Shown here one piece after another: positions 4,716-54,407 of a stretch of 64,000 nt of DNA (the stretch's first letter is position 1; each line of letters opens with the position of its first letter). Made by a program: the position numbers and the translations under genes. Where the stretch lies: NCBI RefSeq assembly GCF_018350175.1, contig NC_058368.1:18602001-18666000 (forward strand), written 5' to 3'. The DNA comes from Felis catus (Eukaryota). Below the pieces are notes generated by a model. That model was not told the DNA's origin. It did no database searches and saw nothing but the letters and a program-made list of their open reading frames with translations.

Positions 4716-6652
4716 TAGTCCCTCTTTTAATCTCCCATCAGCCCCTCAGAGTTGGTACTTTTATCATCCACACTTGACACAGGAGATTTTAAGGAGGAAG
4801 TTCAATGTCACACACTGAGGAAGAGACGGCATTTGTCTGTATGTCCACCGTGGTCCAGTGAGCTCCGAACCACTGCCATTTATTGGCTGTTTCTCCAACC
4901 AATGAGGCTACGTGAACTTGCAGACTCCAGAATCTTAGTGAGACCCTCTTCTGACTGGAGCCGGCCATTCCCATACACAGTAGGCCACGTACAACCGCAG
5001 AAAACGTTGCATCCACCTGCACTACAAGCCCAACACAATACTCACTTCTTAATGTTTGCGTTACATCATAAAATGTAAGAACTGCAGAGGGGCTTTGAAG
5101 GCCATTCAGTCAAAATCAGTTTAGAAATGAGAATGCAAATCCTGGAGAAGTGAAAAGGCTTTCCTAGAATCCCACAACTACCTCAAAGGCAGAGCAAGAA
5201 TAATGTTTTAGGAGTTAAAAATAGTGTGCTGACAACGGATATTCCCAAGACAGTAACATAGGTTGTTCCTGACTTTGCTCCTCACACAAGAACTATCAGC
5301 TATTCAAGAATAAGACACCACTGACATAATCTTAGAACATGGAGATGAGGCTGAAGCCCTACCCCGCACCTCAGAGACCAGGCCCGATTGCAGTAGAGGA
5401 TAAGACAAGCAGCTACACATTGACCACACCGCCCCTCCCCCAGAATAGCACAACACTATGTGGAGAGGTCTTCCGTGAGCCTCCGATTCCTCCAGTGGGA
5501 AAAGAAAATCCAGGGGGGAATGTCAGCTCCCGCAGCATTCTGGGTCACTCTGTGGGAGCCCCTACTCTGATCTCACACCACAGGGATTACAGGGGAATCA
5601 TTGGGACCCATGACAGAGAAGGGGGAAAGGGCTTGCAATAACCAGCACTCAGGGATCTTGGCAGACGGAGTTCCTATCTGCAGTGCCCAAGTAGTAACCC
5701 CAAACAGCGACTTTGCTCATCTACAGAACCAAGTTGAAGGCACACCCTGACCAGGAAACTCAGTGTGATACACATCTGCCTGATTTGGATACTCAAATGA
5801 GGAATTTTGCTTGCCCTGGAGCCTAGTTTGCCCCCATCCAGGCAAGGTGCCGAGTCCCAGCCCCACCCACCACGAAAGTGCCTTCCAGCTCCATAAAACC
5901 AGAAGCGCTGGTGAAAACACCTGAAAGTTGTGTGGCCCAGTGGCGCTCGAGCTGAGAGAAGGGCAGACAGACCCAATAGTTTGTACAGCAAAGTCAATGG
6001 CGCTGTTCATCCAGGAAACTTCAGGTGTGGGTCAGCTTGCGGTAAGACAACAAAGAGCTTTACTAGTTTTCGAGCTGCTTCCCCTGCTGCACCTGAGCAG
6101 GGAACCTACTTTGTAGCCCAGGTCACGACTGAATATAGCCTTCAGCCTATCTGACCAGGGAATCTAACGAGAGAACACAGCCCATGGCTTCCCCTGGCTG
6201 CAGAGCAAAACTAATGACCCCACCTGACCAAAGAATTCAAGGCAAGAATTTCACACCCAGCAAAGCTGTCCTTCAGAAATGAAAAAGGGATACAGACTCC
6301 CCTCCTCTCCTGCAAAAAAGCTGAGGGAGCTCATTGCCACCAGAACTCCCTTACAAAAAATGCTAAGTGAGTTCTTTGAGTAGAAGTGAAAGAACACCAA
6401 TTAACATCAAAAAAACACAAAAAGGTAGCAAAATCTCACTGGTAATGGTAAATATATAGTCATAGTTAGATTCTGCAATGTGGTAATAGTGGTACATAAC
6501 TCACAACTCTAATTTAAAAGTTAAAAAAGTTAATGTAGCAAAAATAACCATAAATACAACAATCTATTATTAGTTACACAATATAAAATATATGTAAGTT
6601 GTAACAGCAATAACCTAAAATGTGAAGGGGAGAAGTAAGAGTGTGAAGTGGA

Positions 6653-6866
6653 CGGGGCGCCTGGGTGGCGCAGTCGGTTAAGCGTCCGACTTCAGCCAGG
6701 TCACGATCTCGCGGTCCGTGAGTTCGAGCCCCGCGTCGGGCTCTGGGCTGATGGCTCAGAACCTGGGGCCTGTTTCCGATTCTGTGTCTCCCTCTCTCTC
6801 TGCCCCTCCCCCGTTCATGCTCTGTCTCTCTCTGTCCCAAAAATAAATAAACGAAAAAAAAAAAAA
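6653..6866 (+). mobile_element. Young felid CanSINE (SINEC_Fc type) nested in L1
   Basis: CpG-rich intact body; perfect 16-bp TSD aagagtgtgaagtgga at 6637-6652 and 6867-6882. Confidence 0.97.
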
Positions 6867-7079
6867 AAGAGTGTGAAGTGGAACTTCTATTGAATTTATA
6901 TAGTTACCAGTTTAAAATAGGGTGTTGTAAGTTTAAGATTTTATATAAGCTTCATGGCAAACACAAGGGAAAAACCTGTAGTAATTACACAAATAACATG
7001 ATAAAGAAGTCAAAGCATAAAGATACCAAAAAACATTAAAATACACAAAAAGATAGCAGGATAAGAAACAAGGAAAAAT

Positions 7080-7324
7080 GGGGCACCTGGATGGCTCAGC
7101 AGGTTAAGCGTCCAACTCTTGGTTTCAGATCAGGTCATGATCTCATGGTCATGAGATCAAGCCCTGTGTCAGGCTCCATGCTTAGCATGGAGCCTGCTTG
7201 GGATCCTCCCCCTCTCTCTGCCCTTCACCCACTTCCTGTCTAAAAATAAATAAACTTGAAAGAAAAGAAAAGAAAAGAAAAGAAAAGAAAAGAAAGAAAA
7301 GGAAAGAAAAGAAAAAAAGAAAGG
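7080..7324 (+). mobile_element. CanSINE with (GAAAA)n tail, nested in L1
   Basis: ggggcacctggatggctcag head; tail expanded to gaaaa repeats. Confidence 0.93.
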
Positions 7325-8033
7325 AAAACAAGGAACAAAGGATCTATAAAACAACCAGAAAACAATCAACAAAATGGCAATAGTAAGTCCTTACCTATCA
7401 ATAATCACTTTAAATGTAAATGGATAAAATTATCCAAAAGACATAGAACAACTGAATGGATTAAAAAAAAAAAGAAAATCAAGATCTTGCAATATGCTGC
7501 CTAGAAGAGATTCACGTTAGCCTTAAAGACTCACATAGGCTAAGAATGAAGGGATGGAAAAAGGCATTTCAAGCAAATATTTATCAAAACAAAAACAAAA
7601 ACAGAAAACAGCAAAAGCAGGGGTAGCTTTACTTATATCAGATCTCAAACTAAAAATGGTAAGAAAAAAAAAGAAAGTCATTATATAATGATAAAGGAGT
7701 CAATACATCAAAAAGATAACAATTATAAATTTTCATACACCCTATATTGGAGCAGCTAAATATATAAAGCAAAAACTAATAGAGCTAAAAAGAGGAATGA
7801 ACAATAATATAATGATAATTGGGGACTTTAATACCGTACTCTCAACAATTGATAAACCAGCCAGAGAACCAATAGGGAAACAGCAGATTTGAACAACACT
7901 ATGGACCAAATGGACCTAACAGACATATACAGAACATTCTACCCAGCAATAGCAGAATACACATTCTTCTAAAGCACAAGTAGAACATTTTCTAGGATAG
8001 ATCATATGTTAGGCCACAAAACAAGTCTTAGAA

Positions 8034-8235
8034 GGGATGCTTGGGTAGCTCAATCGGTTAAGCGTCCGACTTTGGCTCAGGTCATGATCTCACAGCATTG
8101 GGCTCTGTGCTGACAGCTTGGAGCCTGGAGCCTGCTTCAGATTCTGTGTCTTCCTTGCTCTCTGCCCCTCCCCTGTTTGTACTCGGTCTCTCTCTCTCAA
8201 AAATAAATAAAACATTAAAAAAAATTTTTAAAAAT
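8034..8235 (+). mobile_element. CanSINE nested in L1 ORF2
   Basis: SINE head and body; TSD aaacaagtcttagaa on both sides. Confidence 0.95.
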
Positions 8236-8534
8236 AAACAAGTCTTAGAACACTCAAGAAGGTTGAAATCACACCAAGTATCTTTTCTTACCATAATAGC
8301 ATGAAACTAGAAATCAAGAAGAAGAAAACTGAAAAATGTATGAACTCATGGAAATTAAACAACACTCTCTTGAAGAACCAAGGGATCAAAGAAGAAATTA
8401 AAGGGAAATAAAAAAGTTTCTTGACACAAATAAAAAATGGAAACACATATACCAGAACTTACAGAATGCAGCAAAAGCAGTTCTGAGAGTGAAGTGCATA
8501 GCAATAAATACCTACGTTAATAAGAAAGGCCCCA

Positions 8535-8742
8535 AGGCACCTGGGTGGCTCAGTCGGTTAAGCACATGACTCTTGATCTTGACTCAAGTCATGATCTCAC
8601 AGTTCATGGGCTTAAGCTCTGCGCTGATGGGGTGGAGCCTGCTTGGGCTTCTCCCTCTCCCTCTTTCTCTCTCTCTCTGTGCCCCTCCTCCATACTTGTT
8701 TTCTCTCTCAAAATAAATAAATAAACTTTAAAAAAAAAAAAA
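8535..8742 (+). mobile_element. CanSINE nested in L1 ORF2
   Basis: ggcacctgggtggctcagtcggttaag head; TSD aagaaaggcccca / aagaaaggtccca. Confidence 0.95.
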
Positions 8743-11700
8743 AAAGAAAGGTCCCAAATAAACATCTTAACTCTGTTCCTTAAAGAACTTGAAAAAGAAC
8801 AAACTGAACTCAAAGTTATCAGAAGAAGGAAATAATAAATATTAGAGCAGAAATAAATGAAATAGAAAACAGAAAAATGAAAAAGATGAACCAAACTGCT
8901 ATTTCTTGGAAAAGATAAGCAAAATGGACAAAACCTTAGCTAGACTAACCAAGGAAAAAAGAGAAAGAATCCAAATCAGCAAAGTTATTAATGAAAAAAT
9001 AGACATATAATTGATCCTACAGAAATTCAAAGGATCATCAGAGGCTACTATATGACAATAAACTGGACAACCTAGAAAAAAAAATGGAATAATTCTTAGA
9101 GACATACAACCTAATGAAGACTGAATCAAGAAGAAATAAAAAAATGTGAATAGACCAATTACTAGTAAGGAAATTGAACCAGTAATCAAAGATCTTTCAA
9201 TAAAGGAAAGTCCAGGCCCACATGGCTTGTGGCAAATTTTACCAAATATTTTTAAAAAAATGAACACCAATCCTTCTTAAAACTCCCATATTTCAAAGAG
9301 GAGAGAACATTCACAAACCCATTTTGTAAGGCCAGAATTATCCTGATACCAAAACCAGAAAAGGAGACTACTAGAAAAGAAAACTTCAGGTCAATATCTC
9401 TGATGAATATAGATGCAAAAATTCTCAACAAAATACCAGCAAAGTGAACTCAGCAACACATTAAAAAATCATTCACCATGATCATGTGGGATTTATCCCT
9501 GGAATGCAAGGATGCTTCAACATATGCAAATCAATGTGATATATCACATTAATAGAATGAAAGAAAAGGATCATATGCATTCAACAAAATTCAACATCCA
9601 CGCATGATAAAAACTTTTAACAGATTAGGCATAGGTAGAACATATCTCAACATAATAAATGCCAATAGGACAAGCCCACAGCTAACGTCTTGCTCAATGG
9701 CAAAAGAATGAAAGCTTTCCCTCAAAAATCAGGAGAAAAAGACAAGAGTGCCCACTCTCATCATTTCTATTCAATATAGTACTGAAAATCCTGACTAGGG
9801 CAATCAGGCAAGAACAATAAAAGGCAACAGAACTGGAAAGGAAGAAGTAAAATAGTTCCTATTTACAGATGACATGATTTTATATACAGAAAATCCTAAA
9901 TACTCACCCTAAAAAAGGCTAGATCTAACCAATGAACTTAGCAAAGTTTCAAGATATACAGTTAATAGACAAAATCTGTAAAATTTATATATACCAACAA
10001 TGAAATTTCTGAAAAAGAAATAAAGAAATTGATCCCATTTACAAGAGCATCAAAAACAATAAAATGCTTAGGAATAAACAGAAGGAAGTAGATCTCTACA
10101 CTGAAAACTACAAGACATTGATGAAAGAAATTGAATAAAACACACAAGTAAATGGAAATATTACTGTGTTTGCTGATGGAAAATTAATATTGTTAAAATG
10201 TCTAAACTACCAAAAGTAATCTATAGAATCCTACAGTAATCTAAGTGATCCTTATTGATATTTCAAAGGCATTTTTTTTCCCCACAGAAGCAGGAAAACA
10301 CACCTAAAATTTATATGGAACCACCAAAGAAATCCTGAATAAAAACAAAACAGGAAGCATCACATTTCCTGATTTCAAGTTACAATATAAAGCTATGGTC
10401 ATCAAACAGCACGGTATTGGCATTAAAAAAAGACAAACAAGCAATGAACAGAAGTGACAGCCCCAAAACAGACCCAAGCATATACAGTCACCTAATATCT
10501 GACAAGGAAAGCAAGAGTACTCAATGATGAAAAGACACTCTCTTCAATAAATGGTGCTGGGATAACTGGATATTCACACATAAAAGAATGAAACTGGACC
10601 CATACCTTACATCATTCACAAACATTGACTTGAAATGGATTAAAGACTTAAAATATAAGACCTGAAACCATGAGACTCCTAGAAGAAAATATAGCAATAA
10701 AGCTCCTTGACATGGGTCTTGGTAATGATGTTATGGATAGGACACTTAAAGCATAACCAACAAAAAATTGACAGATGGGACTACATCAAACTAAAATGCT
10801 TCTGCATAGCAAAAGAAACCATCAATAAAGTGAAAAGATAGCCTACAGAATGGAAAAAAAATATTTGCAACTCATATATCTGATAAGGGGTTATTATCCT
10901 ACCACTCAGTAGCAAAAAAACAAGTAGCCCAATTAAAAAATGGGAAAAGGATCTGAACACATTTCTCCAAAAAATATATACAAAAAGCCAACGGTTATGT
11001 TTTTAAAAAATGCTCAACGCCACTAGTCTTTAGGGAAACGCAAGTTAAAACCACAATGAGATATTACCTCACATCTGTTAGAATGGCACCATAAAAAAGA
11101 CAAGAGGTAACAATGCTGACAAGGACGAAGAGAATAGGAACCCATGTGGACTGTTGGTGAGGTTGTGCACTGGGACAGCTGCTATAGAAAACAGTATAGA
11201 GGATCCTCCAAAAGTTAAAAATAAAACTGTATGATCCAGATATTCTACTTCTTGGTATTTATCCAAAGATAACAAAAACACTATCTTGAAGAGATATCTG
11301 CACCCCCATGTTCATAACATTATTTCCAACAGCGAAGCTGTGGAAACAACCTAAGTATTCCCCAGGGATGAAGTTGTGGCAGATACATACAACAGAATCT
11401 TATTCAGCCATTATAAAAGATAAGGAAATCCTACCATTTGTGCCAACATGGATAGACTTAGAGGGCATTCTGCTAAGCGAAGTAAGTCAGAGAAGGACAA
11501 GTACTGTATGATCTCACTTATATGTGGAATCTTTAAAAAAGACAGAAAAACTCATAAAGAGATCAGACTTGTGATTACCAGAGGCAGAGGGTCGGAGGAG
11601 AAGGAATTGGAGAAGGTGGTCAAAAGGCACAAACTTCCAGTTATAAGATAAACAAGCACTACGAAGGGAAGGTACATGATGACTATAGCTATCACCGCTG

Positions 11701-12569
11701 TGTAACATATAGGAGAGTTAAGAGAGTAAATCGTAAGAGTTCTCACCACAAGGAGAAATTTTTTTCTTCTTTCTTTTCTTTTTATTGTATCTATACGAGA
11801 AATGGGTGTTAGCTGAACCTATCGTGGTGCTCATTTCACAATACATGTAATCAAACCATCATGCCATACGTCTTAAATGTATACAGTGAAGGATGTCAAT
11901 TATTTCCCAATAAGACTAGAAAAAAAGAGAACACAGTATACTGTTTTATTTCCTCCACCTTTTCCTCCCCTAAAAAGGTAGTTGAACCTACTAACCTAGT
12001 GTTAGAAACTTATGAGAAAGGTCATCATCCCCTCCTGGAAAAAAAAAAAAAAAAAATTCCCTCTCCAGTTGAGATTATTAACCTTTTTATTCCAGAATTT
12101 ATGGAACATGCAGCTCAAGGGTATAGTGTGACTTAACTTGAAAAAGGTCAGTTCCTTCTTCGGGGCTTTCTAGCAATTTTACAATAATGTTGTACACTCA
12201 TATAGCGCATTTTCTGCTAGGGAAATGGAAGCATCAAAATTTAGTATCTGTCAGTTATTTTTTGAAGTGATCGGTTAGTTTACCGGTAGACGGTCAAGGT
12301 CCCGGCACTGGGGGATATGTGGGAAGGAGGATGCAGACAGAGGGAGCAGAAGACTCAGACTCTGTCAGCAGTTTAGGACCCTTGCGAATTCCCCGCCCCC
12401 TTCCCTGCCATAAAAACAGACAGCAACCAAAGAACTGACAGCTATCTGCATTCTTGGAGGAAATTAATTATAGCTACAGAAAAGAAAACGAGAAGGGAGG
12501 AAACAGGAAAACAACGAGAGGAAACAGGGAAGAAGAAGATAAAAGACCATCGATAAGATGAAAACAAAC

Positions 12570-20906: not shown

Positions 20907-21136
20907 AGCTTCTGCTACACATCAGGTTTGGAGACTGTAGATCTAATCAGCGTCCACTCCTCAATCACACGCACACGCGGATGGCGGAGAGTGCGTACTT
21001 TATGATATCTGAGGAGGAGGATGCTACGGGTGCCCTCCGAGAATCACAGCTGACGTCACCCATCAAAACACGAGTCAAAAATAGCCCGTGATAATAACAA
21101 CGTCGACTATAAATCCCACTCGCTAGATCAGTGAAG
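20907..21136 (+). other. Candidate 230-nt non-coding exon
   Basis: Acceptor tttgtttctgtttgttcgctctcccag|, donor GAAG|gtaagg; no through-reading frame. Confidence 0.3.
21047..21114. promoter_or_regulatory. E-box + full CRE + MEF2-like + TATA-like motif cluster
   Basis: CAGCTG 21047, TGACGTCA 21051-21058, TCAAAAATAG 21075-21084, TATAAA 21108-21113 in non-repetitive, CpG-retaining sequence. Confidence 0.5.
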
Positions 21137-23579
21137 GTAAGGAAGTTCGCTGTGGTCCCGGGTGCCCTGTCCCCTGGCGAGCACCCCCAGATGCTGCCCT
21201 TCCTGGCACACAAACAGCCGGGGCTGCTGGTGCTGGAGTCTTGGATGGCGGCAGCAGCAGCCGCGGGATCACGAGGCGAGTGTAATTTAAAACCTGCGTA
21301 TTTAATTAGACAAATTCTTGTCAACATATAGTTCCAGCACTTTATCTCTCTTTTGGCTCCGATTCCCTCTTACCGCCCCCTTTCCAAGTAATTCCATGAG
21401 TTCTGGGAATGTCCAGAACTGCACATGCCCAGGACTAGCACCAATTTATCCTCAGTAATCTGTCAAGCGGCAGCTCATGCTTTTCCACTGGTGTAGGTTA
21501 CCAAGCAACCTCCCTGTCACCCAGGATAATGACCTGACTCTAATTCCAGGGGACACAACACAACGTGGGATCCTGGGTGCAGGAACACCACCGGTGTGGG
21601 ACCCATGCCAACCTGTGGGTGAAGCCCAGCTGTGCAGTTGCCCGGGTCAACTTTTAGCCTTTGTCTGTAAAATGGGGACAGGGGAACAGCTCCCCAGATG
21701 GCTAGGATTTGAGATAATGTACCTAAAGCACGAGGCTGCTTTTGTTTAGCGTCAGCCTGAGAATAGGAATGAAATGGCAGCAGGGAGTGAGGTGTGGGAG
21801 GGTCACTGTCAAAGGGAACAGAGAGCAGATGATTCTGCAGTCCTCCAGGCCCCCTGCTCTCCCAAGTCCCTCTGGAGAAGTGCAGAGATGGCTGGCCCTA
21901 TGCTTTTGTTGCCACAGTGGGACTGGGGAATTTGATGGGTCATTTCTGCAAAGCCTTGAGCATCCAGGAAGCTTAAAGCTGGCCATGGGAACTGGCCGCA
22001 ACAAGACCTGGTGTCAGCCCCAGGCTCGGCATCAACAGCTCTCTAAGGCCGTGGCCTTCACAGTTGCCTCGGCACTTAGTTTATAAGCTCTGTCCATGAC
22101 TCGGGGCCAATGCAGCTGGTCCTTTCTCGGCTCCAATGTGGCCACTTAACATGGGGTATTGCTCCCCCCACTGAAAAGCACTGGTGGGGAGGGTGCAGAG
22201 GGAGAATCCAGCCAGTTGCATAAATTTGCTCTCAAATATTTCTGCCCAGGAAAGCCAAAAAGTCAAAAAGAGGTTCTGGCTCCTCGAGCGCTCCAAGCTT
22301 TTGTATTTGAACAGGAGGAGAGGCTGACTTAGAGGATTTACGAATAAACTGGAAACCAGAGCAGGAACTCCTAAGACAGGATTTACTGACAGTTTTCTGT
22401 GACCAGAGGCCTACCAACCTCCATTAATGTCTTCAGGATCCTCTTGGAGAAGAAGGGGCCGGGGGGGTGGTGGGGGGTGGCAGGCAGGGTTTCTCTCTGT
22501 GAGCCTGGTGATCATGAGATCTGGCCCGGCAGTTTAGGAAACTAGTCCTGGCTACCGAAAGGCAGGGGCCCCTCATCCAGGAGGTGGAGACAATTTCTCG
22601 CAGCCGTAGGAACCAGGAAGGACACCAGGAAATAGAGTCCCCCCTGGAGGCCGAGCAGACAGGAGGGCACCCCCGCGGCCCGGAATGAAACACCCGGTGA
22701 GGCTCCTTGAGGACTTTGTGCTCTTTTGCAAAAAGCTCTCCCCGGAAAGGATGCCTGGTTCACCTTTGTGAAAATGCGTGCTGTTAGAGCTACAAGGACT
22801 CAGATTCCAGGACCTGGACGTTTGTACGCGTCCTTCCCTCTTAATCCGGAGAGCAGTCAGGAGGAGGGAGGCTCGGCAGAGCAGAAGCGGCACCAGAATG
22901 GCAGCGCTGATGGAGGTGTCCCGGTCACGCACGCTGGCTGACGGCACAGTCCCCTCACAGAGTCGGAGCCTGCCAGGACACACGGGCTGCTCAGACCAGA
23001 CCCGTAAGCCCAGCAGCCAGGGGCTTGGTTGGGCTTTCATTCGGGACTGTGTGGATGGTGTCTGAGTAAGGCAGGAAGATCCCGGGCTCAGAGTCCAGAA
23101 GCCGTCCTGGGGTTTGGCTCCAGCTCCACTGACTGATTCGCACCCAATCCTAAGAAAGTCCCAGACCTCCCTCTACAGTCTCTGCCTCTGTTAACTCTTG
23201 ATTCATTTTGTAGATACCACGAGAAGCTTTCTGAGCTCCCAGCGACCTAGTCCAAACTGTGACCTGGACCACTCATATCAGAGCCATTAAAAATTCAGAT
23301 TCCTGGGCCCGGGCAAGACCAACTGAAACCGAATTTCTGAGGAACTAAGAAGTCTGCATTTTAACAAAATCTGAGGTGATCCTCACGCATGATCAGGACT
23401 GAGAGTCACTGATTTGGATGATGAGTCCAAACTGCTGAATATGGTTCCCAGGCCTTTACGCTCTGCCTTTTGAGTACCATTCCCAGCATCCTCTCTGCTT
23501 CTACACCACTGGCTGACATTCAGGTCCACATACCAAGGCCAGGTAGTGGGCTAATTAAATGCATCCACTGAATCCCCAG

Positions 23580-24300: not shown

Positions 24301-25194
24301 CTGTATTATTTTAAATTTCTAGGATGCCGTTACCCACCCCTGTAACCACACCGCCCAGCGTGAAGAAGAGGTTAAACAAATGTACGCTGAATGGAAGCGT
24401 GAATGGCAGGACGGCCCTTTCCCATGGGACTGAGAAAAACAAATCTGAGGAACCGCCTCAGCCGTGACAAGAGGCCAGGAAGAGACTACGAGAAGGTGGC
24501 AAGTAATGGAAATTTCGGAGGAAGTAGCGAAAGAAAGGAAGAGAGATCGGGTGCTGTGTCGCGGGTCCAGAGGAGAAGCTGGAGAATGGGGGCTGTGAGG
24601 GGGCAGAAGGCCACGGCGCTGAAAGGAAGAGCCAGAATGAAGAAAACAAGAAGGAAGGGCAACGGGATAGAGGCAAACCCAAACGTCCCAAGGTGCTTTG
24701 CATGCAAATGCTTTTGAGCCCCAACCACTCCAGAAGGCAAGCAGGGCCATTAGAAGGTTAAAAGAAGACCCACGCAGTCAGTCTCTGAGGGCAAGAAGGC
24801 AGATCCTAAGAGCATCAGGGGACCGTTCATCGTCCAAACGCAATGCAAGGGAAAATATCAGCAAGTGGAATTATGCTGCAAGAACCTCGACTATAATGTC
24901 ACGGGGAATGAGTCCAAGAGACGTTTTAATGACAACTCCAATGCCAGGGATCAAAGAGTATGACATAAGCTTTAAGAGCAGGGCAATTAACGATGTGTTT
25001 TGGAAGGAAAATCTGGAAGAAAAAAAACGCGTACTACCAGCTGTGGTAATGCCGTTGAGTAGACCAAGGAGGAAAATAAACACATATAGTTAGAAATAAA
25101 ATGGCTGCAAGAGACCTTGCGCTTATAAATGTTGGCTAAACGAGAGGTGAGAGAGATCACTCTATCGTTCTACCAAAGCATGCCCGCAACTGAG

Positions 25195-25425: not shown

Positions 25426-28400
25426 GGCAGTGGTAGTGGGGTCACGGTTAGTACCATTCAGTTTCACGAAGATACCCTTTTCAGGTACCCATGCCCTGTT
25501 CCCCCAAGTAGATTTTACCCTCCAAAGGAGCCGTGCAAGTCTGTCAGATTAGCCCGACCGAAACAACGCCAGAATCTGGTCTCTTATTCTGAGCTGTGTG
25601 TGTGCAAGACAGCGTGAAGAGCCCGATTAAGGTGCTCAAGCCAGGATTCCCATTCCATGGTCCCTTCCATTCCAGTGCCAGAAATGAAGCGGCGGACCTC
25701 CCCGTGGCCCAAGGCAGACTTGCAGGAGCGCCATGGGAGCATCACAACCAGTGGGCCCGGGGTTAGCGGAGGGCACAGTCATTCACGGCTAGCACCGTGG
25801 AAGGAGAGGCAATTTACCAGACAGTCCTGACAAAATGACTGAATGGATCCCAGAGACACTGAGCCCGGGTACATCCCTCATAAATCACAGCTGAAGGACA
25901 AGTGCAGATGACCATGGTTTGTACAAGTATCTCTGGTCTGGGACAAGGGGTCCAGAGGAAACAACCCGCTGCCCAGCCAGGGGAGAAGAGAAGGGCCGAG
26001 GCAATCAGATGTCGTCCAGGCAGATAGGAGTCAGGGTCTGTGGCAAGACTGAGCCAGAGGCATGAAGACAGACTCTGAAAGGCAGGCCGGATGCAGTGTT
26101 GGGGCCAAGGCTGACTTTTGTTAGGAGAGCGCCAAACCTGGAAACGAAGCCAGGAGAGAAGTAAACATGTGAAGAGAACAACTGCATTCTTTCAGAGTGA
26201 GAGAGAAGGATTGAGAAAGAAGGACAGACAGGAAGACAAATGGAAGGAGAGACTGACCAACCGAAAGAGAGGGACTAACGGGCAGACTGGTCGACGGAGA
26301 CGGAGACTGACAGAGACAGAACAGACTAGCCTGGCTGGCTTTCCCTTCCTGGGTCCCACGCGTGGTGGACGCATGGCTGCGGAGTTGGGGAACGGCTCCC
26401 CGAGAAGGTGGGGCAGGGGCTGGGCATTACGCAGCGGGGGGACCAGATGTCAGGAGAGGGGGGCCCCGAGAGTCAGAGCTTTCCTTCAAACTTCCCAACA
26501 GTTTCTTGAACATAATTATAGAAGCAACGCAGACTCCAGCCCAGCATCTTTGTTTTCCTTGTGCCATGCTGTTCTCAGGGCATCTGAGTCCTCAGCAAGG
26601 AACTGTCACATTCATTTCATTCTATAAGAAGACAGAAAGCTTTGATGGCATGCTGCTAAGAAAGCTGGAATCAGGATACAGATCTCCCAAATAGGATGAG
26701 TACTTTTTTAGGGTAGTTGTTCAGCAGAGGCAGGACAGTGGCTGATGTCACCACCCCAGTGTGAACAGCGCGCAAGCAGCCCTGCTCTCTGCTCCTGCCT
26801 TGGCCACAAACCAGCTCTGTGATCTTGGACAACTGACTTGACCTATCCGGAGATCTGTCTGTAAATTCACAAAACGAGGAGATTGAACTGGCTGTCTTTC
26901 AGGCTTGCTTGCGGTGCTGCTACCATTTTAGATTCTGTGGTTCCACAAACCCCTAGTTATTTATACATCAGGCTTTTTCGCAACACCTGAATAGTATTGC
27001 CAACTGTGTCAATAATATTTTATTTATTATATTACTATGAAGTGAATAGGTTATTTATCTTGTCCCAGGACAACTTGTACTTGAATACAATTTCAACATG
27101 CATAGTAAATCTCTCCTCCTGTGAACTCCAAAAGCATTTAAATCTAGACACCTCTTGGTACTCCCCACATTCTGCTTTAGGCTATGCTTATTCAGGAACA
27201 TGCCTTATTGTCCATTACTAGATGTTAAGCTCCCCAAACGCTACCTGGAAGCCCGGCTGCAAAGAGAAAGAACGGAGCTACCAAGGCCGCTTTCACCTTT
27301 GCAGGTCCAAGAGCATACGCGGCACGTTCAGTGCGTGTTTGTGGAGCAAACATCTATTTGGAAAGGATGCAAAACTTAAAAGGAATTCATCAAATGAGCC
27401 TAATGAAATCCCATCCTTGGCTGCCCCCACCCCAACACAGCAGCGCGGCTAACCTAACACCTTTGCCTAGAACTAATAAACATTGACCAACTTGAACGCA
27501 AATGGCCTCTAGCCTCAATGCTGCCGAAAAGTTTGGGAAGCCCACAGAATACGGACAAGAGATGTCGCTGCAGTGGGTCAGTGGGGAAAGAGGCGGTGGG
27601 ACGCTTTGAATTCCCAGTCATTGAACGTGTTTGCAAGATGCCTGAAGTTACACAAAAGCTAACGTTATAGGGACCTGACGGAACCAGATAGCGTCAGGTT
27701 GGCTGCCGAAGCATGTTTTCAGCCGAGAAGGTGAAAATGAGAGGAAAAACATAGGGGGAAGGGACAGAGAACAAAACTGTCTAGGGTCTTCTTAAGGCAA
27801 AGGTCCCTCCAACCATAGTTTCTAACCATCCTGCAAGAAAGTTTAGATAGGCACCCAGTGGTTCTAGTTCAACAAGATCTCCACCGTCCTTTTAACGCCC
27901 AGCAGGCTTCCTGACCCCATGTCCTCTGCCTCTTGCCTAATTCCCAAGGAAAGCGCAGCCCTCCCCCGACTCGCCAACCCAAGCTCTGAGTCCCTGTTAA
28001 TAACCTGCTTCCAAACAGTGCCTCTGTGTCCCAACTACCACACCTCCGCTTCCCACCTCCCCCACCTCTGCCCCACCTCCAGTCCTCACTCCCCTACCCA
28101 GCCTGGCCTGGGGACACTGGCCTCCCTTGTCACCCAGCAGTCCCCTGCACTTGCTGGGGTCAAAGGCCATCGGGGCACACTTCCTGTTTCTCCCCTTCCA
28201 CCTCAGCAGCCCTCGGCCACGCTGTCTCACATTCCAGGCACCCTTTCCCTCCCTCTTTGCCTTCTTCTTCCATTACTAATGCCCATTCTAGAAACTTGCT
28301 CAGTCGGGACTGTACTAGCGAGTGACTGAGGGTGTCCTGCACCACCCAAGTGCCCGCGAGTCTCGATCGTGTTATAGCTCAATTTCTGTTTGTGTTAGCT

Positions 28401-30439
28401 TGCTCGCTCTTTTACTTCCGTGTTCATTCACATTTACCGAGTTCACATTCTGCAGGAGGGAGGGAGGTTTACTCGACTGAGGCCGGACGCGGCCGTAAGG
28501 ATGGCCGGAGAGAGCCTTGAACCTGCCATTGCCGGACAGGATGCACTTAATCTCCAGCCTGCGGAGGGCACGGGGCTTGAAGCGAGCCTCTTTCCCAGCA
28601 ACTGCCCTCCAAGACAGGCCGCTCCACAGACTGCAAGGCTGCTCACTTCTGGCTGAAAAACTCCCGTGGCTGACTCTCTTGGAGGAGCAGGAAATGAGAC
28701 GCTGTTAACGAGTGGAACCGCTGTGAACCGTGCCAAGAATTCTATGCCACACGGTCGCAGCATGCTGGAACAGGCTGAAGAGGCCGGTCTCACCAAAGAG
28801 TTAAACCAAGGCCGCATCGCCAGGCCGTTAATGCCTCCTGCTTTCCGAGCTGACAGGAACAGGACGTTCTAAAATGGCTACACCCTTGAACCACAACTCA
28901 TCAATCACAGCGCGGAACATCGAGCTTGGGGCTCCGACCGGCTCCTGCAAACTCCCTCTCTCGCCTCTCTGCCAGGCTCCTGCTTTGTTACCAGGCTCCT
29001 CACTTGCTCTCCGGAAGCCAGAACCACTCTCGGGTCTCGTGTCCCGCATACCCGTGTCCCCCCCGCATTGGCCCGTGCGGCCCAGAGCGCCCACGAGCTC
29101 ACGGACGCCAGCGTGATCGCCCGGGTTGGCCACTGCTTATTCATCAGTCCTGCTAAGTGGCACGTGTTCGGGCTGCCACACAGGTCGCCTCAAAAACATC
29201 TGGCCGGCTGTGTACCTCCCCAGCGGCGTAGCAGTGCGCCCCTCTCTGCCCCTGTCTCCCTTCAGCCTCCGAGGAAAAGAAGTCCAGCCTCCCGCCTGGC
29301 ATTTCTTCCTTAGCTGCGTGGAAATCAATTTGCACCAGCCTTGCTTTGGCTGCTCTAAGCCGCCCCTCCCGGCGGCCCACTCGGCTCCTCGATTAGCTCG
29401 TCCCCATGTGTGCAGCCACAGCCCTTTCCGTCCTGACCCTGTCCCTTTCCCCGGCCTGCCACCTCTTCTCCTCATTTACCTCTCCGGGGCTCCTCCTGGA
29501 CCTCTGCGCACAAAGGCCCCGCCCCCTCTCTACCTTTTAAACGCGCTCTTTTGCCCACAGGTGCCTTCGGGCCCCCCACTTCCCTCCCACGTGCAATCAC
29601 CTGGCTTCTTGCTCACCTGGTGCCTTTCCCACCCTCTGGCTTTCGTGCCACGCCTTTCTTCCCGAGAGCTGCCTTCCGTCCAGGGACACATCCGCCCCAC
29701 CCAGGCTTCCTCTGACAGATACAGGGCAAGTCTTCTAAGCAGATAGTTTATATTTCAATAAGACGAACCCGGATTCCAAATGACCTCCCTGGCCGACGGT
29801 GAGCGCTCACCACGTGACTATCGCGGATCCACATTTTTCTCCAGCAGATGCCCCCTCCTTTCCTCTCTCCCCGACCCTGAACCCCCCACCTTGCCTTCTT
29901 CAGTGAGGTCATATTTACCTTCGGAGTGAGAACCCAGCATTTTCAGGAAATTGCCAGGACTAATACGATCTGCTCTTTGCCATGTATTTTCTTTGATTCA
30001 GCCACTGCTGCTGGTGCCCACCCAATTCCCACCCTCACCCGCCCTGCTCACACCGTGATGAGGACAGCTAGCGTTTACTGAGCCATGCCTGTGTGTCAGG
30101 CACTGCTCCAAGCGCTTTGCATATAAAATTCCCCGGGTCTGCCCTCTGCATCTTATTTTAGCTTCTTTAAACTCTTAACTCACAGGAGGAAAGACACCAA
30201 ACTGGGCAGAGGGGAAGAAGCCTTAAAATAACCAACGGGAACAATGTAAACATCTCTAGGTGTCCCAATTAGATGTTTTAGGATCTTTATTCCTTTAGGT
30301 ATAATTCCCACTCATTCAAGCTGGTACGTTCCTGGTTCTGAACATAGAAACTTGCTTTTAAATTAAGAAGTATTATTGCATTTTTTCAAGCTGCACATTT
30401 TGAGAGAGATCTCTGCATTTCCAATGGTAAATCTAGAGA

Positions 30440-31058: not shown

Positions 31059-31293
31059 CAGTGATCCTCCAAGTGGACGACTGGTGGTCCATCTAAATGG
31101 TGGACCAATGGTGGATTGGTCACCTCCAAATGGTGATTGATGGACGAAATCATCTGGGAGCTTGTTAGAAATGCAAATTCTCAGGCCCTATGCTAGACTC
31201 ACTAAATCAGAAAGTCCAGGGGCAGGGCCCAGCAAACTGTGTTTTAACACTCCCTCAGGGTGATGTTGATGAAGATACAAGTTGAGAAGCAGT
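31059..31293 (+). mobile_element. MER5A hAT DNA transposon with locally expanded 5' end
   Basis: catctgggagcttgttagaaatgcaaattctcaggcccta...tgtgttttaacac...gttgagaagcagtg. Confidence 0.8.
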
Positions 31294-34200: not shown

Positions 34201-34978
34201 ATTCGTTCGTGCCACATCGGCCCACCCACATATCAGCCTTGTACCGTTTCCACACATTTATTTGGTGAGTAGAAACCATATGTTTAACACCTTATATTTA
34301 TAGAAGGCTTTGCAGGTCATGGAGGCATTTTCAATAAGAAGCTCGGCTGAGGTTGGTAAGTTAGCAAAAGGCTTCTAATTCCTAATCTAGTACTCTCTTC
34401 CCATTTTGCTTTGCTATCTCTGGCAAAACATGTGCTGTCTGGAGAAAAACGGTCAAATAAAATGAAATTGTGTTGCAGTGGGTATTAGTAGAAACAAATT
34501 AAGATTTAACTTCTCCTATACCACGTGGGATCCTTTTTAGCCTTTTTACACCATGGTGAGGGGACAATCTACAAAGTATTTACTTAGAGTTACGTCCCCA
34601 AATCCAATTTGTGAAAACACAACTGCCATTGTGCCCCGTACGGCTTCCATCAAATATTGGACATTGAAAAAGTATGTATCCATGTGACTACAATGCACAT
34701 GATCACCCTTCCATTTGTCTTTCGTCCCGTGGGAGACCATGCTGAAAGGCTCATGGTGTCAGCTCGCACGTCAGTCTCCATGAGTAGAAGCAAGTAGCTA
34801 ACTAGCAGAGAAAAACAGAAACATTTTCAAGGGCTTACAAACATGGGATTCAAGTTTCTCTCCTGGGGGCCTTTGAAATCAAGGCCTCTCATCAAGCAGA
34901 AGAGAGTCATTGGCTTTCTCATTGGGGTCTATGGGCCGGGTCACGTGTTGGGTGTTCCTTCTGCTGAGATTGAGGAAA

Positions 34979-35109
34979 GAGCACTGCTTCAATGACATAA
35001 AAGGGAGTTTATCCATAGGAGGCATCCAAAATAGAAATGTTGCTGTAAAAGTAATTAGACTTGAGTTTAAAAGGATCAGTTTCTCATTAAGGGTTTCCCT
35101 CTAAGGCTT
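34979..35109 (+). repeat. Inverted repeat arm 1 (partner 36467-36597)
   Basis: Ungapped hand alignment to the reverse complement of 36467-36597: 113/131 identical. Confidence 0.93.
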
Positions 35110-36390
35110 TTTACAAGCTTAAAGCTTGAATCTAATCTCCAGTGTCAGCTGTGGAAGGAAGGGAGGCACAGATGCATATTCACATACTAACAAGTATGTG
35201 CCCTGGTTTCGCTGATAAAGCACAATAATGATTTCACTGTACATAGATATAAATATATGCTCGCCACCGCCATCTCCTCCCCACCCCTGCCACCACCCAC
35301 TGGAGATGGAGACCCTGGAGATCAAAAGCAAACTTGGCACTCATAAAAGCTGGAAGAAAACTCTTTAACCATGATTAGAATTAGAATTGGTTATTCCCAG
35401 CAGCCCCAAATGTCAACGGAAACCCTTCCCTTTCCTCATTCCTTGTAATTCAATTCCCTCTCGGCTTGTAGTGGATATGTATCTGGTCCTGTTCCGGGTT
35501 CGAGAATACAAAGATAGATAAGACCCATTCCTGCCCCATAGGAATGCAGAGCTCAAGCCGGGTTTCTCAAAGTGTGTACCAATCAGCACCCACACGGACC
35601 TAAGGGTTCCTGCCAAACAGTAGGAGTCAAGTCTAGTTTTCAGATCATGTGCAGAACCACTGAGTTTGAACTTAATCAGAAGCTCTAAGCGTGGGCTCAG
35701 GAATCTTTATACAAGTCCCCCCCGGTGATTTCTATGTACACAAAAGTAACAGACACCCTAATTTCAAATCATTTGTAAATAATTTGTGATTTTCTTCTGA
35801 TAAGTCTTGAAATTCCAGGCCATGGGTCACAAACCCATCTCTTAAGAGAGCAGAGACAACCATCTCCACGCTCTGAGATCTTTGCGGGGTGCTATGAAAC
35901 TGGACTCCTCCGGCTGATTACGGGAGGCCTTCTAGAGCCTCCCTCTTCTCAGTAAGTCTCTACACCAGCCATCCTCCACAAGGCCCCCACCTTGTTCACC
36001 AGTGGGAAGCATTCTGGGTGAGCAAAGGTTGAACATGTGCTAGAGTTGAACCTGGGTTTGGATCTCAGCACTTTCACTTCCTGGTTGTGAAACCACAGGC
36101 AGAGTACCAGGCCTTTGGTGTCCTTGTCAGTAAAATGAAGAAGGCTACAGTATCTAGCTCTCAGGATGACCAGGATTGGATGAAACAATGCATCCAGGAA
36201 GCACACATACGGGTTGGCATACATTAAGCATCGAATAAATGTTGTTACTGTCGTTACCAAAGTCCTTGGTGGAACTCATTTGGGTTAATGTCCCAGAGCT
36301 CAAAAAATCACCCCAAATTCACAACAGACTAGCTTTCTCCCTGAAAGAGACCTCAAAATCCATGACATGTAGACACACAACTCAGTGGAC

Positions 36391-36447
36391 AATGATCTAC
36401 TTCTAAACTGTGCCTTAGAGTCTGCAAATGATAAGATAGTATAATTT
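36391..36447 (+). repeat. Direct repeat copy 1 (copy 2 at 36616-36630 + 36880-36938, split by a SINE)
   Basis: Identical 27-mer ctaaactgtgccttagagtctgcaaat at 36403-36429 and 36893-36919, with similar flanks. Confidence 0.92.
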
Positions 36448-36466
36448 GTGGCTAATTTCCCTCATT

Positions 36467-36597
36467 AAGCCTTTGAGGGAAACCCTTAATGAGGAACTGA
36501 TCCTTTTATATTCAAGTCTAATTACTTTTACAGCACCATTTCTATGTTGGATGCTTCCCATGAATAAAGCCCATTTTGTGCCATGGATGAAGTGTTC
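36467..36597 (-). repeat. Inverted repeat arm 2 (partner 34979-35109)
   Basis: aagcctttgagggaaacccttaatgaggaactgatccttt... is the reverse complement of ...aaaggatcagtttctcattaagggtttccctctaaggctt. Confidence 0.93.
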
Positions 36598-36630
36598 ACA
36601 TGTAAGTGAGAGGAAAATGATATAACTTCT

Positions 36631-36671
36631 TTTTTTAATTTAAGTTTTTTTTAGAATGATTATTTGTTTAT

Positions 36672-36716
<45 letters not shown>

Positions 36717-36879
36717 AAGCAGGGGAAGGGCAGAGAGAAGGAGAGAGAGAATCCCAAGCAGGCTCCACACTGTCAGCGTAAAGCCCAATGTGGGGGCTTG
36801 AACTCATGAACCGTAAGATCATGACCTGAGCCAAGATCAAGAGTCAGACACTTAACCGGCTGCACCACCCAGGCACCCC
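36631..36879 (-). mobile_element. CanSINE
   Basis: Antisense SINE with long (GA)n; TSD aatgatataacttct / aatgacataactcct. Confidence 0.94.
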
Positions 36880-37179
36880 AATGACATAACTCCTAAACTG
36901 TGCCTTAGAGTCTGCAAATTAGGATAGTATAATAATTTAGGGAGGGTGAAAAGTGGGTCATATATAAATGAACATTTTTTCAAACTGAATTTACAAAATA
37001 CACGTGTACCACACCTAAAGCAAGCCAGATGTATAAAAATCTAGATTTATTATGCATGCCTTTATCCAAAGATAGACAGCTCCCTAAAATATTTAATGTA
37101 TCATTTTGTTTAAAAAAAAATCTTTATCCAAACACAAAATCTCAGGAGGGCATCTATTCCATCTATTCCATAGTCCAAA

Positions 37180-41540: not shown

Positions 41541-41722
41541 CAGCGGTCCTCAGTGTGGGGTCTCTGGACCAGCAGCAGCAGCCTCACCTGGGAACTTGTT
41601 GGAAATGCACATTCTTGGGCCCCACCACAGAATTATTGAATCAGAAACTCCAGGGATGCAGCCCAGCGTCTATGTTTTAACAGGCCCTCCAGGCGATTCA
41701 GATGCGGCTGGGAACCACCAGT
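41541..41722 (+). mobile_element. MER5A hAT DNA transposon
   Basis: cagcggtcctcagtgtgggg...ggaccagcagcagcagcctcacctgggaacttgttggaaatgcacattcttgggcccc...gggaaccac. Confidence 0.85.
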
Positions 41723-44781: not shown

Positions 44782-45710
44782 ATCATGAAGTGCTTAGGAC
44801 ATTGCCTGGCATGCGAAAAGACCTCAATAAACTATGAAAATCATTCGTAACAATCTGTAAAATGGGGGAAGTAATAGTGCCAGCCTCATAAGGGAGTCTG
44901 AGGATTAAGACAGATAATGCACACAGGGCCTGACTCACTGGCTCCATAAGCGGCAGCTCTCGGTGACTCCCCCAGGGCCAAGAAAGGCAGACGATCCGGC
45001 AGTTACAGAAAGCCACGGCCAGGGAACATGTGGTGACCGGAAGCTATAGAGGACCTCTGGGGCCCCGATGGGAAAGGATGTTCCTGTCTCAGGGGGTCAG
45101 AGACCAGAGCAGGACCCCAGAGAGCCAAGGGCTGCATGGGGGCAGGAAATGCCAATTACTGTCCTGCCAAAGGGGACACCTGCAGACCACATGCAGAGCA
45201 ACAGAGAGCCTGCTGTTCTCCGGCCTTTCCTGGGCCTCGGGGCCAAGCCATGGGCTCGGACAGGAAGCCCAGGGCCGCCTGTGTCAAAGTGGACCTGGAG
45301 CCATGCCCGTTCCCTGCTCTGGGGCACCACGGCTCGCACGCCAGTTCCCCATCCCTTTCCCACACCAAGGAGGGAACTCTGAGCTTCCCAGACACCCAGT
45401 GACTGTCCATTCAGGCCAGCAAGGCTGCTCACCTGGCCAACAAGGCAGGGCCAGGTCGGAAGCAGGGTCCAGGGGCTGTAGGCCTCCAATAAAAATATTT
45501 CCAGAGCAAGTTGGTGTGGAGGGATCCCTCCTATTCCTTTTAACCCCTGTCTCTTCTCTCGCCCACCACCTGGCTCTCGTCGGGGGCTCGGTTCCCCTCC
45601 CCAAGCTGCCCTTTCCGCCTGTCTTCCCACTCATTCAGTCAACAGTGTTTCCTGGGGGCTCTCCAGGTGGCAGGGTCAGCATGGTGCTGGGAACAGAGCA
45701 GTGCTGCCCC

Positions 45711-45878
45711 TGTTCCAGTGTGTGCTCCAGCGAGTGCTCCAGGGTGTAATCCAGTGAGCGCTTCAGTGCGTGCTCCCGTGCGTGATCCAGTGCATGCTCG
45801 AGTGCGTGCTCCAGTTTGTGCTCCAGTGAGTGCTGCGGTGCGTAGTCTAGTGGGTGCTCCCGTGAATGTTCCAGTGCA
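45711..45878. repeat. 12-bp minisatellite, 14 diverged units, no indels (consensus TGCTCCAGTGMG)
   Basis: Units tgttccagtgtg, tgctccagcgag, tgctccagggtg, taatccagtgag, cgcttcagtgcg, tgctcccgtgcg, tgatccagtgca, tgctcgagtgcg, tgctccagtttg, tgctccagtgag, tgctgcggtgcg, tagtctagtggg, tgctcccgtgaa, tgttccagtgca. Confidence 0.95.
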
Positions 45879-46324
45879 GGAGAAAGACGAGAGCCAAGAA
45901 GAGAAAGGAAAGCTTTTCCTCTTGGTCGACGGTGAGTGGTAAAGAGCAGAGGGATGGATGTGGCACAGAACACGAACTAGGGTCAGGGTAGCGGCAGCCA
46001 AGTCAGCCGAGGCGGGGGCGTGTACTCAAGGCTTCCTTCTTCCCCAGCTGACTGTCCCCTGATCTCACGGCTACAGGTTAGGAAAGCAGCCGTGAGCATT
46101 CTGTGTGGTTCTGTTTCACACCGGGGCTCATCTTCTGGAGCCATGTGACCACACTCCTCCAGATGCCTGTGGGTGGCCAAACCGAAACAAGAGTCCTCTG
46201 CTGGAGCCTGTGTTTCTGGCTGTGGACTGGGAAATCTGGGAGCCTTGGAATCAGGCTTGAGTTCGAATCCTGATTCTGCTGCACTCACCGGCTTTGGCGG
46301 AGCTGTGGGTGACCTGCCCACAGC

Positions 46325-49368: not shown

Positions 49369-49585
49369 GGGGCGCCTGGGTGGCGCAGTCGGTTAAGCGT
49401 CTGACTTCAGCCAGGTCACGATCTTGCGGTCCGTGAGTTCGAGCCCCGCGTCGGGCTCTGGGCTGATGGCTCAGAGCCTGGAGCCTCTTTCCGATTCTGT
49501 GTCTCCCTCTCTCTCTGTCCCTCCCCCGTTCATGCTCTGTCTCTCTGTCCCAAAAATAAATAAACTTTGAAAAAAAAAATTTTTT
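49369..49585 (+). mobile_element. Young felid CanSINE
   Basis: Near-identical to the 6653 copy; TSD aattatgacataga. Confidence 0.96.
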
Positions 49586-51130: not shown

Positions 51131-51909
51131 TGCCTTACAGGATGACTTATGTCCCCCTCAAAATTCATGTGTTGATGCTCTAAACCCCGGTCCCTCACAA
51201 CGTGACTGTATTTGGAGAGCGGGTCTTCGAAGAGGTAATTAAGCAAGTTTTTTTAAAAAAAGAGGAAGAGCTACAGTAACAGAGAACTTAGAGAACAGAG
51301 GGGGAAATTGTACTCACGATACTGACACCAGAACACGAGAAAATGTAGTCTTGTTTAAAAAAAAAAAATACAAAGCAGAAATGAAGCTAAAATGAGGTCT
51401 TTGGGGGCAGGCCCTCATCCAACAACCCTGGTGACCCTTTAAGAAGGGGAAATCTGGGGGCGCCTGGGTGGCGCAGTCGGTTAAGCGTCCGACTTCAGCC
51501 AGGTCACGATCTCGCGGTCCGTGAGTTCGAGCCCCGCATCGGGCTCTGGGCTGATGGCTCAGAGCCTGGAGCCTGTTTCCGATTCTGTGTCTCCCTCTCT
51601 CTCTGCCCCTCCCCCGTTCATGCTCTGTCTCTCTCTGTCCCAAAAATAAATAAACGTTGAAAAAAAAATTTAAAAAAAAAAAAAGAAGGGGAAATCTGGG
51701 CACAGGCACGCACAGAAGGAAGACCACGTAAAGACGTGGGGAGAAGACGGCCATCCACACATCGAGGAGAGAGGCATCAGAAGAAATCAACCTCGCCAGC
51801 ACCTTGATGGTGGACTCCCAGCCTCCAGAACTGCGAGAAAACACATTTCCGGTGTTTAAGGCACTCTTTCTGCAGTGCTCTGCTGTGGGAGCACAAGCAA
51901 ACTACCACG
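51131..51909 (+). mobile_element. MaLR LTR (MLT1B-like) with two insertions
   Basis: tgtccccctcaaaattcatgtgttga...gtgactgtatttggaga...gaggtaattaag / aaatgaggtc...cagcctccagaactgcgaga...gcaaactac. Confidence 0.85.
51457..51682 (+). mobile_element. Young felid CanSINE inside the MaLR LTR
   Basis: TSD aagaaggggaaatctg on both sides. Confidence 0.96.
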
Positions 51910-52848: not shown

Positions 52849-53065
52849 GGGGGCGCCTGGGTGGCGCAGTCGGTTAAGCGTCCGACTTCAGCCAGGTCAC
52901 GATCTCGCGGTCCGTGAGTTCGAGCCCCGCGTCGGGCTCTGGGCTGATGGCTCAGAGCCTGGAGCCTGTTTCTGATTCTGTGTCTCCCTCTCTCTGCCCC
53001 TCCCCCGTTCATGCTCTGTCTCTCTCTGTCCCAAAAATAAATAAACGTTGAAAAAAAAAATTAAA
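52849..53065 (+). mobile_element. Young felid CanSINE inserted at the tail of the preceding SINE
   Basis: TSD aaaaaaaattaacaaggc at 52831-52848 and 53066-53083. Confidence 0.96.
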
Positions 53066-54407
53066 AAAAAAAATTAACAAGGCTTCCTGAACGTGACAAA
53101 TAAAAATGATTACCTTTCCTACCTTTAAAAAATAATAATAATAATAAAGTTTATTGAAAAGCGCTAGTCGTGTGGCAATGGTAGTGATGGTGACCGTGAC
53201 CACCACCGGCACCTTCTGAAACACCTACAAAAGCAACAGGCCAAGAGCAACTGAACCACCCCCAGACCGTACCCCTCTCCCCCCGTGTCAGCCCTCTCAC
53301 AGCGGGAAAAGGACCACTTCCGTGGACAGGCAGAAAGTGTGCCCAGAACGCGGTGTGATCTCATTAAATGTTCAAATAACGGGATTTTGGACAGATCCTC
53401 CCCAAAGGAAACTCAAGCAAGTGCCCTGCTCACAGAGGGCGGTGGGATCCCCTCTGCAGCTGGGAGCACAGTGGGCCGTGAGCAAGGGCTCGGCCAGGCT
53501 GGCTGGGCATATGGTGCTGGCTCCGTCTCTCACTTCTCCTAAGCTGCCCTTCTGTGTTTGCTCGTCTGCGGACTGGATACCGTAAAAATAGCACCTACTT
53601 CATAGGGTTGTTTTCAGAATTAGATGCAATCCTGTCCACGTAAAGCAACGGAGTCGGCACCTCCACATAGAGTTAATGTGCAGTAACATTAGTGGTCGGT
53701 ATAACGGTTTGTTTTCAGAAGGCATGACTTTGATTCCTGTCACCTATCCGTGAGGTTTTGAGCAAATTGTGGTCTTCTCCCTAAGCTTTGGTCACCATAC
53801 GCACAGGGTCGGAGCAAGTCTGTGAGAGCGTCGTGTGCTGCCCTCACCCTTAAATTACTTGCATTTCTTACAGAGCCAGGCACAAAAATGCTTGTGGAAT
53901 AAATGAATACAAAACCCCATGGTATGACTCTTATCTAACTGCCTGATGAACATTTCAGTTAACATTGAAGTAGTCCTGAGTGGTTCGGGACCTGTGGCCC
54001 ATCAGGTGCAGTGGGTTCGGTTGAGCTCACAGAGCAGCAACCACCTTGCTTCTGGTTTTCAGGATGATTGGCTGGTGCCATCAAGCTAAACGCATCTCAG
54101 CAACACCGAGCCTCGATCTTGCCTCCCCAGCATCTTCCTGAATAAAGGTCGCCTTTGTCCATCTAAAAGATTGAGTAGAAGATACGCTGTGGCAACCTGA
54201 CAGCTGTGTCGTCTGTGGATAGGGTCAGTGTCAAAACAAATAGCGAGCTATTTTCTCTTCATATAGGAGCGCTTAAAGTCTACTCCTTCAGATGTGGCTC
54301 AGCTTTCCTCCAACTGTGCTCTAGCTTTGTGCCTGCAAGTTCCTCTTCTTAACCAAACTCGTCCCAAAAAGTTGTTCATTTTAATGGCCCTGGGTCAACA
54401 GTGGCAG

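Follow-up and report, generated by a model that had tools for sequence, protein, structure and literature searches.

The cat genome carries an old and real scar of a known kind, most likely a templated inverted insertion with a duplicated target, within the 64,000-nt stretch of Felis catus DNA that we analysed (hereafter the window). The scar was probably left by a single germline replication or repair accident involving two template switches, a reading that we draw from the arrangement and junctions of the duplicated parts. Because no ancestral or orthologous empty site was seen, we infer both the direction of copying (arm 1 as the source, arm 2 as the insert) and the occurrence of one event only.

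Layout of the inverted and direct repeats

The window consists of non-coding mammalian DNA in which tRNA-derived SINEs are numerous and a fragment of L1 is present, the SINE and L1 family names being our own presumed assignments. By human synteny it presumably lies near the COG6-FOXO1 gap, probably in intergenic or lncRNA territory. Among 128 listed open reading frames (ORFs) of at least 90 aa, 49 were scanned against Pfam and none of these 49 reached the curated cut-off. The ORF at 24671-25090 (plus strand) gave a match to PF23057, the first RNA-binding domain of ZCCHC3, at E 4.4e-5 and 24 bits against a cut-off of 27, and may be what is left of a ZCCHC3 retrocopy or of an old LINE ORF1. A second ORF (45544-45940, plus strand) encodes short Ala/Pro/Val/Ser repeats followed by an acidic-basic stretch, has a strong donor-like site near 45932 and matched no Pfam family; it could be an exon belonging to a gene or lncRNA not yet recognised. 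A long decayed fragment at 6200-11800, which we take to be L1, is interrupted by four or more SINEs of later date. Four young SINEs (6654-6865, 49369-49581, 51456-51682 and 52849-53073) share 95-98% mutual identity with their CpGs intact, and the tRNA-Ala called by ARAGORN on one of them is an artefact of its tRNA-derived head. Two non-coding regions, 20950-21400 and 28400-29600, appear CpG-rich or conserved and may be regulatory elements, an impression gained from sequence only.

Arm 1 (X, 34979-35109, plus strand) and arm 2 (X', 36467-36597, minus strand) match as reverse complements at 113 of 131 positions without gaps (E 3e-38 in a self-BLAST of the window), and are separated by 1357 nt. 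Identity in this alignment is split between an inner part (69/74) and an outer part (44/57), so that all counts given in an earlier note for a 131-bp ungapped inverted repeat were reproduced. The spacer (B, 35110-36361) looks like ordinary non-coding DNA; the two ORFs scanned there matched no Pfam family, and it presumably contains MER5-like and MIR-like relics. At 35115-35129, next to the inner end of arm 1 and the putative switch point, lies a perfect palindrome of 15 nt whose 7-bp arms enclose a single central nt. It is unlikely that the arm pair is an assembly artefact, because 18 differences distinguish the two arms and every one of the 182 words sampled from 34800-36625 is present in each of 14 DNA-like data sets (of which 13 are flagged as possibly the source of this DNA).

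No third copy of the arm was found by self-BLAST within the 64-kb window, in which the arm pair is one of only two repeat pairs present in just two copies. This absence weighs against the idea that a dispersed transposon or LTR fragment inserted twice independently, as does simple expectation, since even a family of 10,000 copies would give only about a 1% chance of a neighbour within 1.5 kb (assuming a 2.4-Gb genome). Such an origin could be argued from arm 2, where an AATAAA precedes a CA end by about 35 nt, an arrangement that to our eye resembles an LTR 3' end. The other two-copy repeat (31150-31264 and 41584-41697), presumably MER5-like, provides a yardstick for old dispersed elements, and is only 75% identical and gapped. 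In addition, the duplication flanking arm 2, at 80 bp, is far longer than the 6-20-bp target duplications given for CanSINEs in PMC4084570. We consider independent insertion very unlikely; even if the arm descends from an old element, its second copy is best explained as local. A scan of a metagenome collection with the arm motif returned 0 matches, as did a SINE control, and is uninformative about copy number. An element with 131-bp terminal inverted repeats was rejected, by inference from sequence, for want of transposon-like ends or a target duplication.

Arm 2 is flanked by two copies of a direct repeat, at first bounded at 36390-36445 and 36879-36933 (50/57 identical, E 2e-12), with an identical 27-mer at 36403 and 36893. 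The repeat in fact reaches 25-29 nt further left than this first boundary and abuts or overlaps the end of arm 2. In an ungapped extension, 36362-36390 matches 36587-36615 at 18 of 29 positions, a level equalled by 2-3 of 400 background windows; a gapped alternative begins the repeat at 36365/36598, with one 12-nt and one 4-nt indel. Copy 1 (plus strand) therefore consists of a left extension, 36362-36390, starting at 36362 ungapped or at 36365 with the two indels, and a core (D, 36391-36445) that differs from copy 2 by 2-4 substitutions in 53 aligned columns and 2 indels (4/53 by recount, 2/53 against the left target copy). Copy 2, also on the plus strand, starts at 36598-36630, which includes the left SINE target duplication, and resumes at 36880-36933, which includes the right one. 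Whichever alignment is used, the start of copy 2 coincides with the outer end of arm 2 or lies within it, which leaves no filler to be explained at the return junction and a duplication of about 80 bp. The flanking copies and the 27-mer thus agree with the earlier description of arm 2 between direct repeats of about 57 bp, and only the length is revised. We also considered whether the entire 225-bp unit had been duplicated in tandem long ago and rejected this, as similarity reaches 18/30 only in the block adjoining the repeat and is 3-10/30 in six blocks further left on the diagonal.

An insert flanked by direct repeats is also what retrotransposition leaves behind, and L1 could in principle have reverse-transcribed a fragment of some local RNA into a long staggered nick, giving an RNA-templated insertion. 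L1-mediated insertion (TPRT) is recognised by a poly(A) tail and a short target duplication, whereas here neither a poly(A) nor a poly(T) tail occurs at the arm 2 junctions (longest A run 4, longest T run 3) and the duplication is about 80 bp. The insert contains no L1 sequence, and the repeat ends show no site resembling TT/AAAA, the L1 endonuclease consensus. An L1-driven origin, largely refuted by the missing tail, is thus highly improbable.

The surroundings of the two arms differ. Arm 1 has no target duplication around it: the longest direct match shared by its 80-nt flanks is 5 nt, a length that 646 of 655 background pairs reach or exceed, against 27 nt around arm 2. Within copy 2 of the direct repeat sits a SINE (36631-36879, minus strand) belonging to the commonest repeat in the window, of which 16 relatives were aligned; we take it to be a CanSINE. 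It is bounded by a 15-bp target duplication (36616-36630 and 36880-36894, 13/15 matching). Since the SINE lies with its target duplication inside copy 2, the direct repeat must be the older of the two, in line with the earlier proposal that a CanSINE split the second copy and that the event predates it.

Template switching as the likely origin

Under the probable single-accident model, synthesis would have run from left to right as far as approximately 36445. A first switch would then have moved it 1.3 kb back, to position 35109 with the opposite strand as template, while a 21-nt filler containing a short foldback was left at the junction, and 131 nt would have been copied back from 35109 to 34979. 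Return about 80 nt upstream of the departure point would have duplicated 36362/36365-36445, and the CanSINE would have inserted into the second repeat copy afterwards. The resulting order, A-X-B-D-X'-D-C, would come from one event with two switches, and we favour this model because one event explains both duplications.

Both junctions carry features of interest. The filler at the first junction (36446-36466, plus strand) contains a 9-bp foldback, in which 36456-36464 is the reverse complement of 36474-36482. Only 28 of 9129 sampled 21-mers in the window reach at least 9 nt against their next 30 nt (0.3%), and the small foldback reported previously at this junction is therefore both present and uncommon. 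No clear priming microhomology was found there. The return junction is either an 11-nt mosaic zone or a blunt join, according to the alignment chosen. In the mosaic zone (36587-36597), a candidate microhomeology for the return switch, 4 bases fit arm 1, 3 fit the extension of repeat copy 1 and 4 fit both, the two templates agreeing with each other at only 4 of the 11 positions. Of the 13 differences in the outer arm, 3 are bases that agree with the repeat extension. Together, the layout, the lack of a target duplication at arm 1, the foldback filler and the mosaic return junction support a templated origin. The earlier note had proposed a templated insertion of FoSTeS/MMBIR type; its templated nature is supported by layout and junctions, and its specific mechanism is indistinguishable here from polymerase-theta synthesis.

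The same two junctions would permit more than one derivative order. A staggered-break inversion with duplicated ends (A-X-D'-B'-X'-D-C) might have been followed by a flip-back through recombination between the arms, which could also have changed part of the arms, or two unrelated local duplications might have occurred. Multiple solutions are likewise noted in the legend to Fig. 4 of PMC7025897. Such two-step histories nevertheless require two events, and leave the equal similarity of the repeat core and the inner arm (see below) unexplained, and we consider them unlikely.

The single-accident model has close counterparts in other settings. In the '4 precedes 1' class of four-point template switches described by Walker et al. 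2021 (PMC7954356), direct and inverted repeats arise together: an inverted fragment is copied and a direct repeat results from return upstream of the departure point. In that class point 2 before point 1 permits intra-strand switching, as would be the case in the cat. The scale differs, however, as that survey took in templates no more than about 100 nt from the cluster region, and copied lengths had a median of 12 and a maximum of 128, whereas the cat event spans 1.3 kb, copies 131 nt and has no ancestral allele for comparison. The same layout, with two duplicated segments on one chromosome joined by two inversion-type junctions, is described for 531 tumour clusters in PMC7025897 (2020); those variants are somatic, while the cat scar is an old germline one of just 131 + 80 bp. 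It resembles FoSTeS/MMBIR rearrangements at the PLP1 locus (PMC6902434) in that one junction carries an insertion and the other a zone of imperfect match. Microhomeology in that work covers 7-14 bp with 70-90% identity between templates, compared with 4/11 in the cat mosaic zone, which has been blurred by tens of millions of years; the repeat extension, at 62%, also lies below the 70% cut-off used there. Finally, mammalian genomes are reported to hold millions of inverted duplicate pairs of at least 10 nt, of which 6-8% are expressed (Chen et al. 2017, PMC5398296). The cat arms resemble the intergenic members of that set in being a non-repetitive inverted pair in non-coding DNA, but their arm is long and their 1357-nt spacer exceeds the 1000-nt limit applied.

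Uneven divergence and age

Divergence increases along the arm, a gradient that is real but modest (permutation p 0.018 for the best split and 0.007 for mean position). With the last 11 nt removed, differences still number 5/74 against 10/46 (p 0.023). A divergent patch of 40-60 nt lies at the return junction. At 36557-36615 this patch differs from its templates at 19 of 59 positions, compared with 9-11/143 in the flanking copied parts (ungapped Fisher p 5e-6 to 4e-5; 11/41 differences and p 6e-4 to 2e-3 under the gapped model), p values that have to be read with its boundaries having been picked after the fact.

The repeat core (2-4/53) and the inner arm (5/74) have diverged to a similar extent (Fisher p 0.7-1.0), whereas the core compared with the whole arm gives p 0.07-0.32 and with the outer arm p 0.005-0.035. 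On the strength of the first comparison, inner arm and repeat core appear to be of the same age, as would fit the template-switch model. As the repeat core is unable to pair with arm 1 and is equally similar, the inner arm is not specially conserved, and the gene conversion or selection on the inner stem once suggested for this pattern is not needed. Inner-arm divergence is probably the clock and the patch the outlier. A plain template-switch model does not predict such a patch, which is most simply put down to a mutation burst or imperfect priming at the origin, or to later mutation linked to a hairpin, and a 29-bp hairpin present only in the inserted copy coincides with its position.

Compared with local consensuses, the SINE has 4-9 differences per 100 non-CpG sites, a local consensus being liable to overstate its age, and its target copies differ at 2/15. 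Ages from the SINE, the inner arm and the repeat core overlap within wide intervals, though for an event that preceded the SINE the duplicated parts seem a little young. The neutral distance between cat and dog is near 0.2. Set against this distance, the divergence observed would place the event after the cat-dog split, and an empty site would be expected in the dog. For CanSINE subfamilies, PMC4084570 gives ages of approximately 45-60 MYA (I) and 35 MYA (IIA).

Possible RNA structures

The hairpin at the return junction (36537-36608, plus strand) is predicted to be unbranched, with 29 bp (23 Watson-Crick and 6 G-U), several bulges and a 6-nt loop, at -24.3 kcal/mol and z -3.3. It forms in the inserted copy and on the plus strand only, the minus strand folding at -12.9 and the arm 1 equivalent at -6.9 kcal/mol. 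Folds as strong occur in 13 of 1388 GC-matched windows, and comparable single hairpins in 24 of 6394. Mosaics of the template alleles fold at -7.5 to -10.3 kcal/mol, and random mutation of the same number of sites reaches -24.3 in 3-15 of 3000 trials. Allowing for the place of search, we estimate the chance of such a hairpin somewhere in the 230-nt insert at roughly 5-10%.

Taken further, the modelled fold would suggest that the inserted copy gained 19-20 changes that make the hairpin, either as a feliform-specific miRNA precursor or as a donor-hiding structure for a new 68-nt exon. A miRNA hairpin is expected to have an unbranched stem of about 30-35 bp, a basal UG and a downstream CNNC; no basal UG was found in 36515-36536, and the sole downstream CNNC is at 36626. 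The putative exon (36534-36601, plus strand) is a motif match, with an acceptor-like AG at 36532-36533, a donor hexamer at 36602 and an AATAAA at 36563. This donor lies under the hairpin stem, and the same hexamer occurs 22 times in the window. Rfam gave no family at gathering threshold across the 64 kb, and in 34700-37100 only two matches at chance level (E 5.6 and 8.2). A functional gain of this kind seems quite unlikely to us, and we regard the junction hairpin as a lead and not a finding. An H/ACA snoRNA, considered for its size, an ANANNA-like box and an ACA just beyond the arm end, was rejected, with no Rfam match and no long 5' hairpin. Template switching is known to create miRNA hairpins (Monttinen et al. 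2023, PMC10710096), and the cat structure likewise has the size of a pre-miRNA hairpin and sits at a probable template-switch site. In the events of that paper perfect pairing arises in one step, in contrast to the predicted cat stem with its G-U pairs and bulges, which is not the copied inverted repeat.

Seen from the opposite direction, arm 2, together with the hairpin and the exon-like signals that it carries, could be native and possibly constrained, with arm 1 derived and decayed and the direct repeat of separate origin. Arm 2 alone has an intact hairpin and intact splice-like signals, and at paired sites 5 of 7 arm 1 alleles would break a pair while a sixth would give a wobble, an argument that is partly circular because the structure was defined from arm 2. 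Arm 1, however, has no target duplication or tail, the hairpin has no Rfam family, and its lower 10 bp are drawn from sequence that aligns to the direct repeat, so that it spans the junction. A native arm 2 is therefore a doubtful proposition, held at no more than a slight probability, and we retain arm 1 as the presumed source.

Whatever their origin, the arms might also pair with each other as a selected RNA structure, either an ADAR substrate or a splicing modulator. Such a duplex is thermodynamically possible (predicted at -171 kcal/mol for the plus and -162 for the minus strand). Six RNA runs contain part of the stretch, possibly as DNA: five metatranscriptome runs at shares of 0.12-0.89 and one host transcriptome of another organism at 0.09; these runs speak neither for nor against such a role. 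In that search the 68-nt exon would fall below the one-twentieth word threshold, and the 31-letter index is blind to 22-nt reads. The differences between the arms do not favour a selected duplex, as those compatible with G-U pairing number 5 on the plus and 4 on the minus strand, showing no wobble bias (at the low power afforded by two copies), and 9 of the 18 are transversions, which disrupt the pair on either strand. Conservation of the inner arm does not exceed that of the unpaired repeat core, and stronger duplexes are predicted between the SINE next to arm 2 and each of two inverted SINEs within 1.2 kb of it (-255 and -247). The Pfam scan of 49 of the 128 ORFs yielded no host gene for a duplex. 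With no wobble bias, no Rfam match and stronger SINE duplexes adjacent, the role proposed in the earlier note for an RNA stem of about 130 bp is unsupported, though not refuted, and we give a selected duplex very little credence. The inserted product is probably neutral, without sign of function.

As it stands the scar matters little in itself, but it is a fossil indicating that template switches over kilobases, as known in patients and tumours, leave small fixed scars in the germline too, at a scale that falls between that of short-range surveys and that of catalogues of structural variants. Its importance would be greater if the junction hairpin were expressed and under selection, as a new RNA element would then have come from a rearrangement junction. 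In that case a small RNA gene or a regulated exon would have been born at a long-range template-switch junction, and the hairpin would account for the concentration of divergence there.
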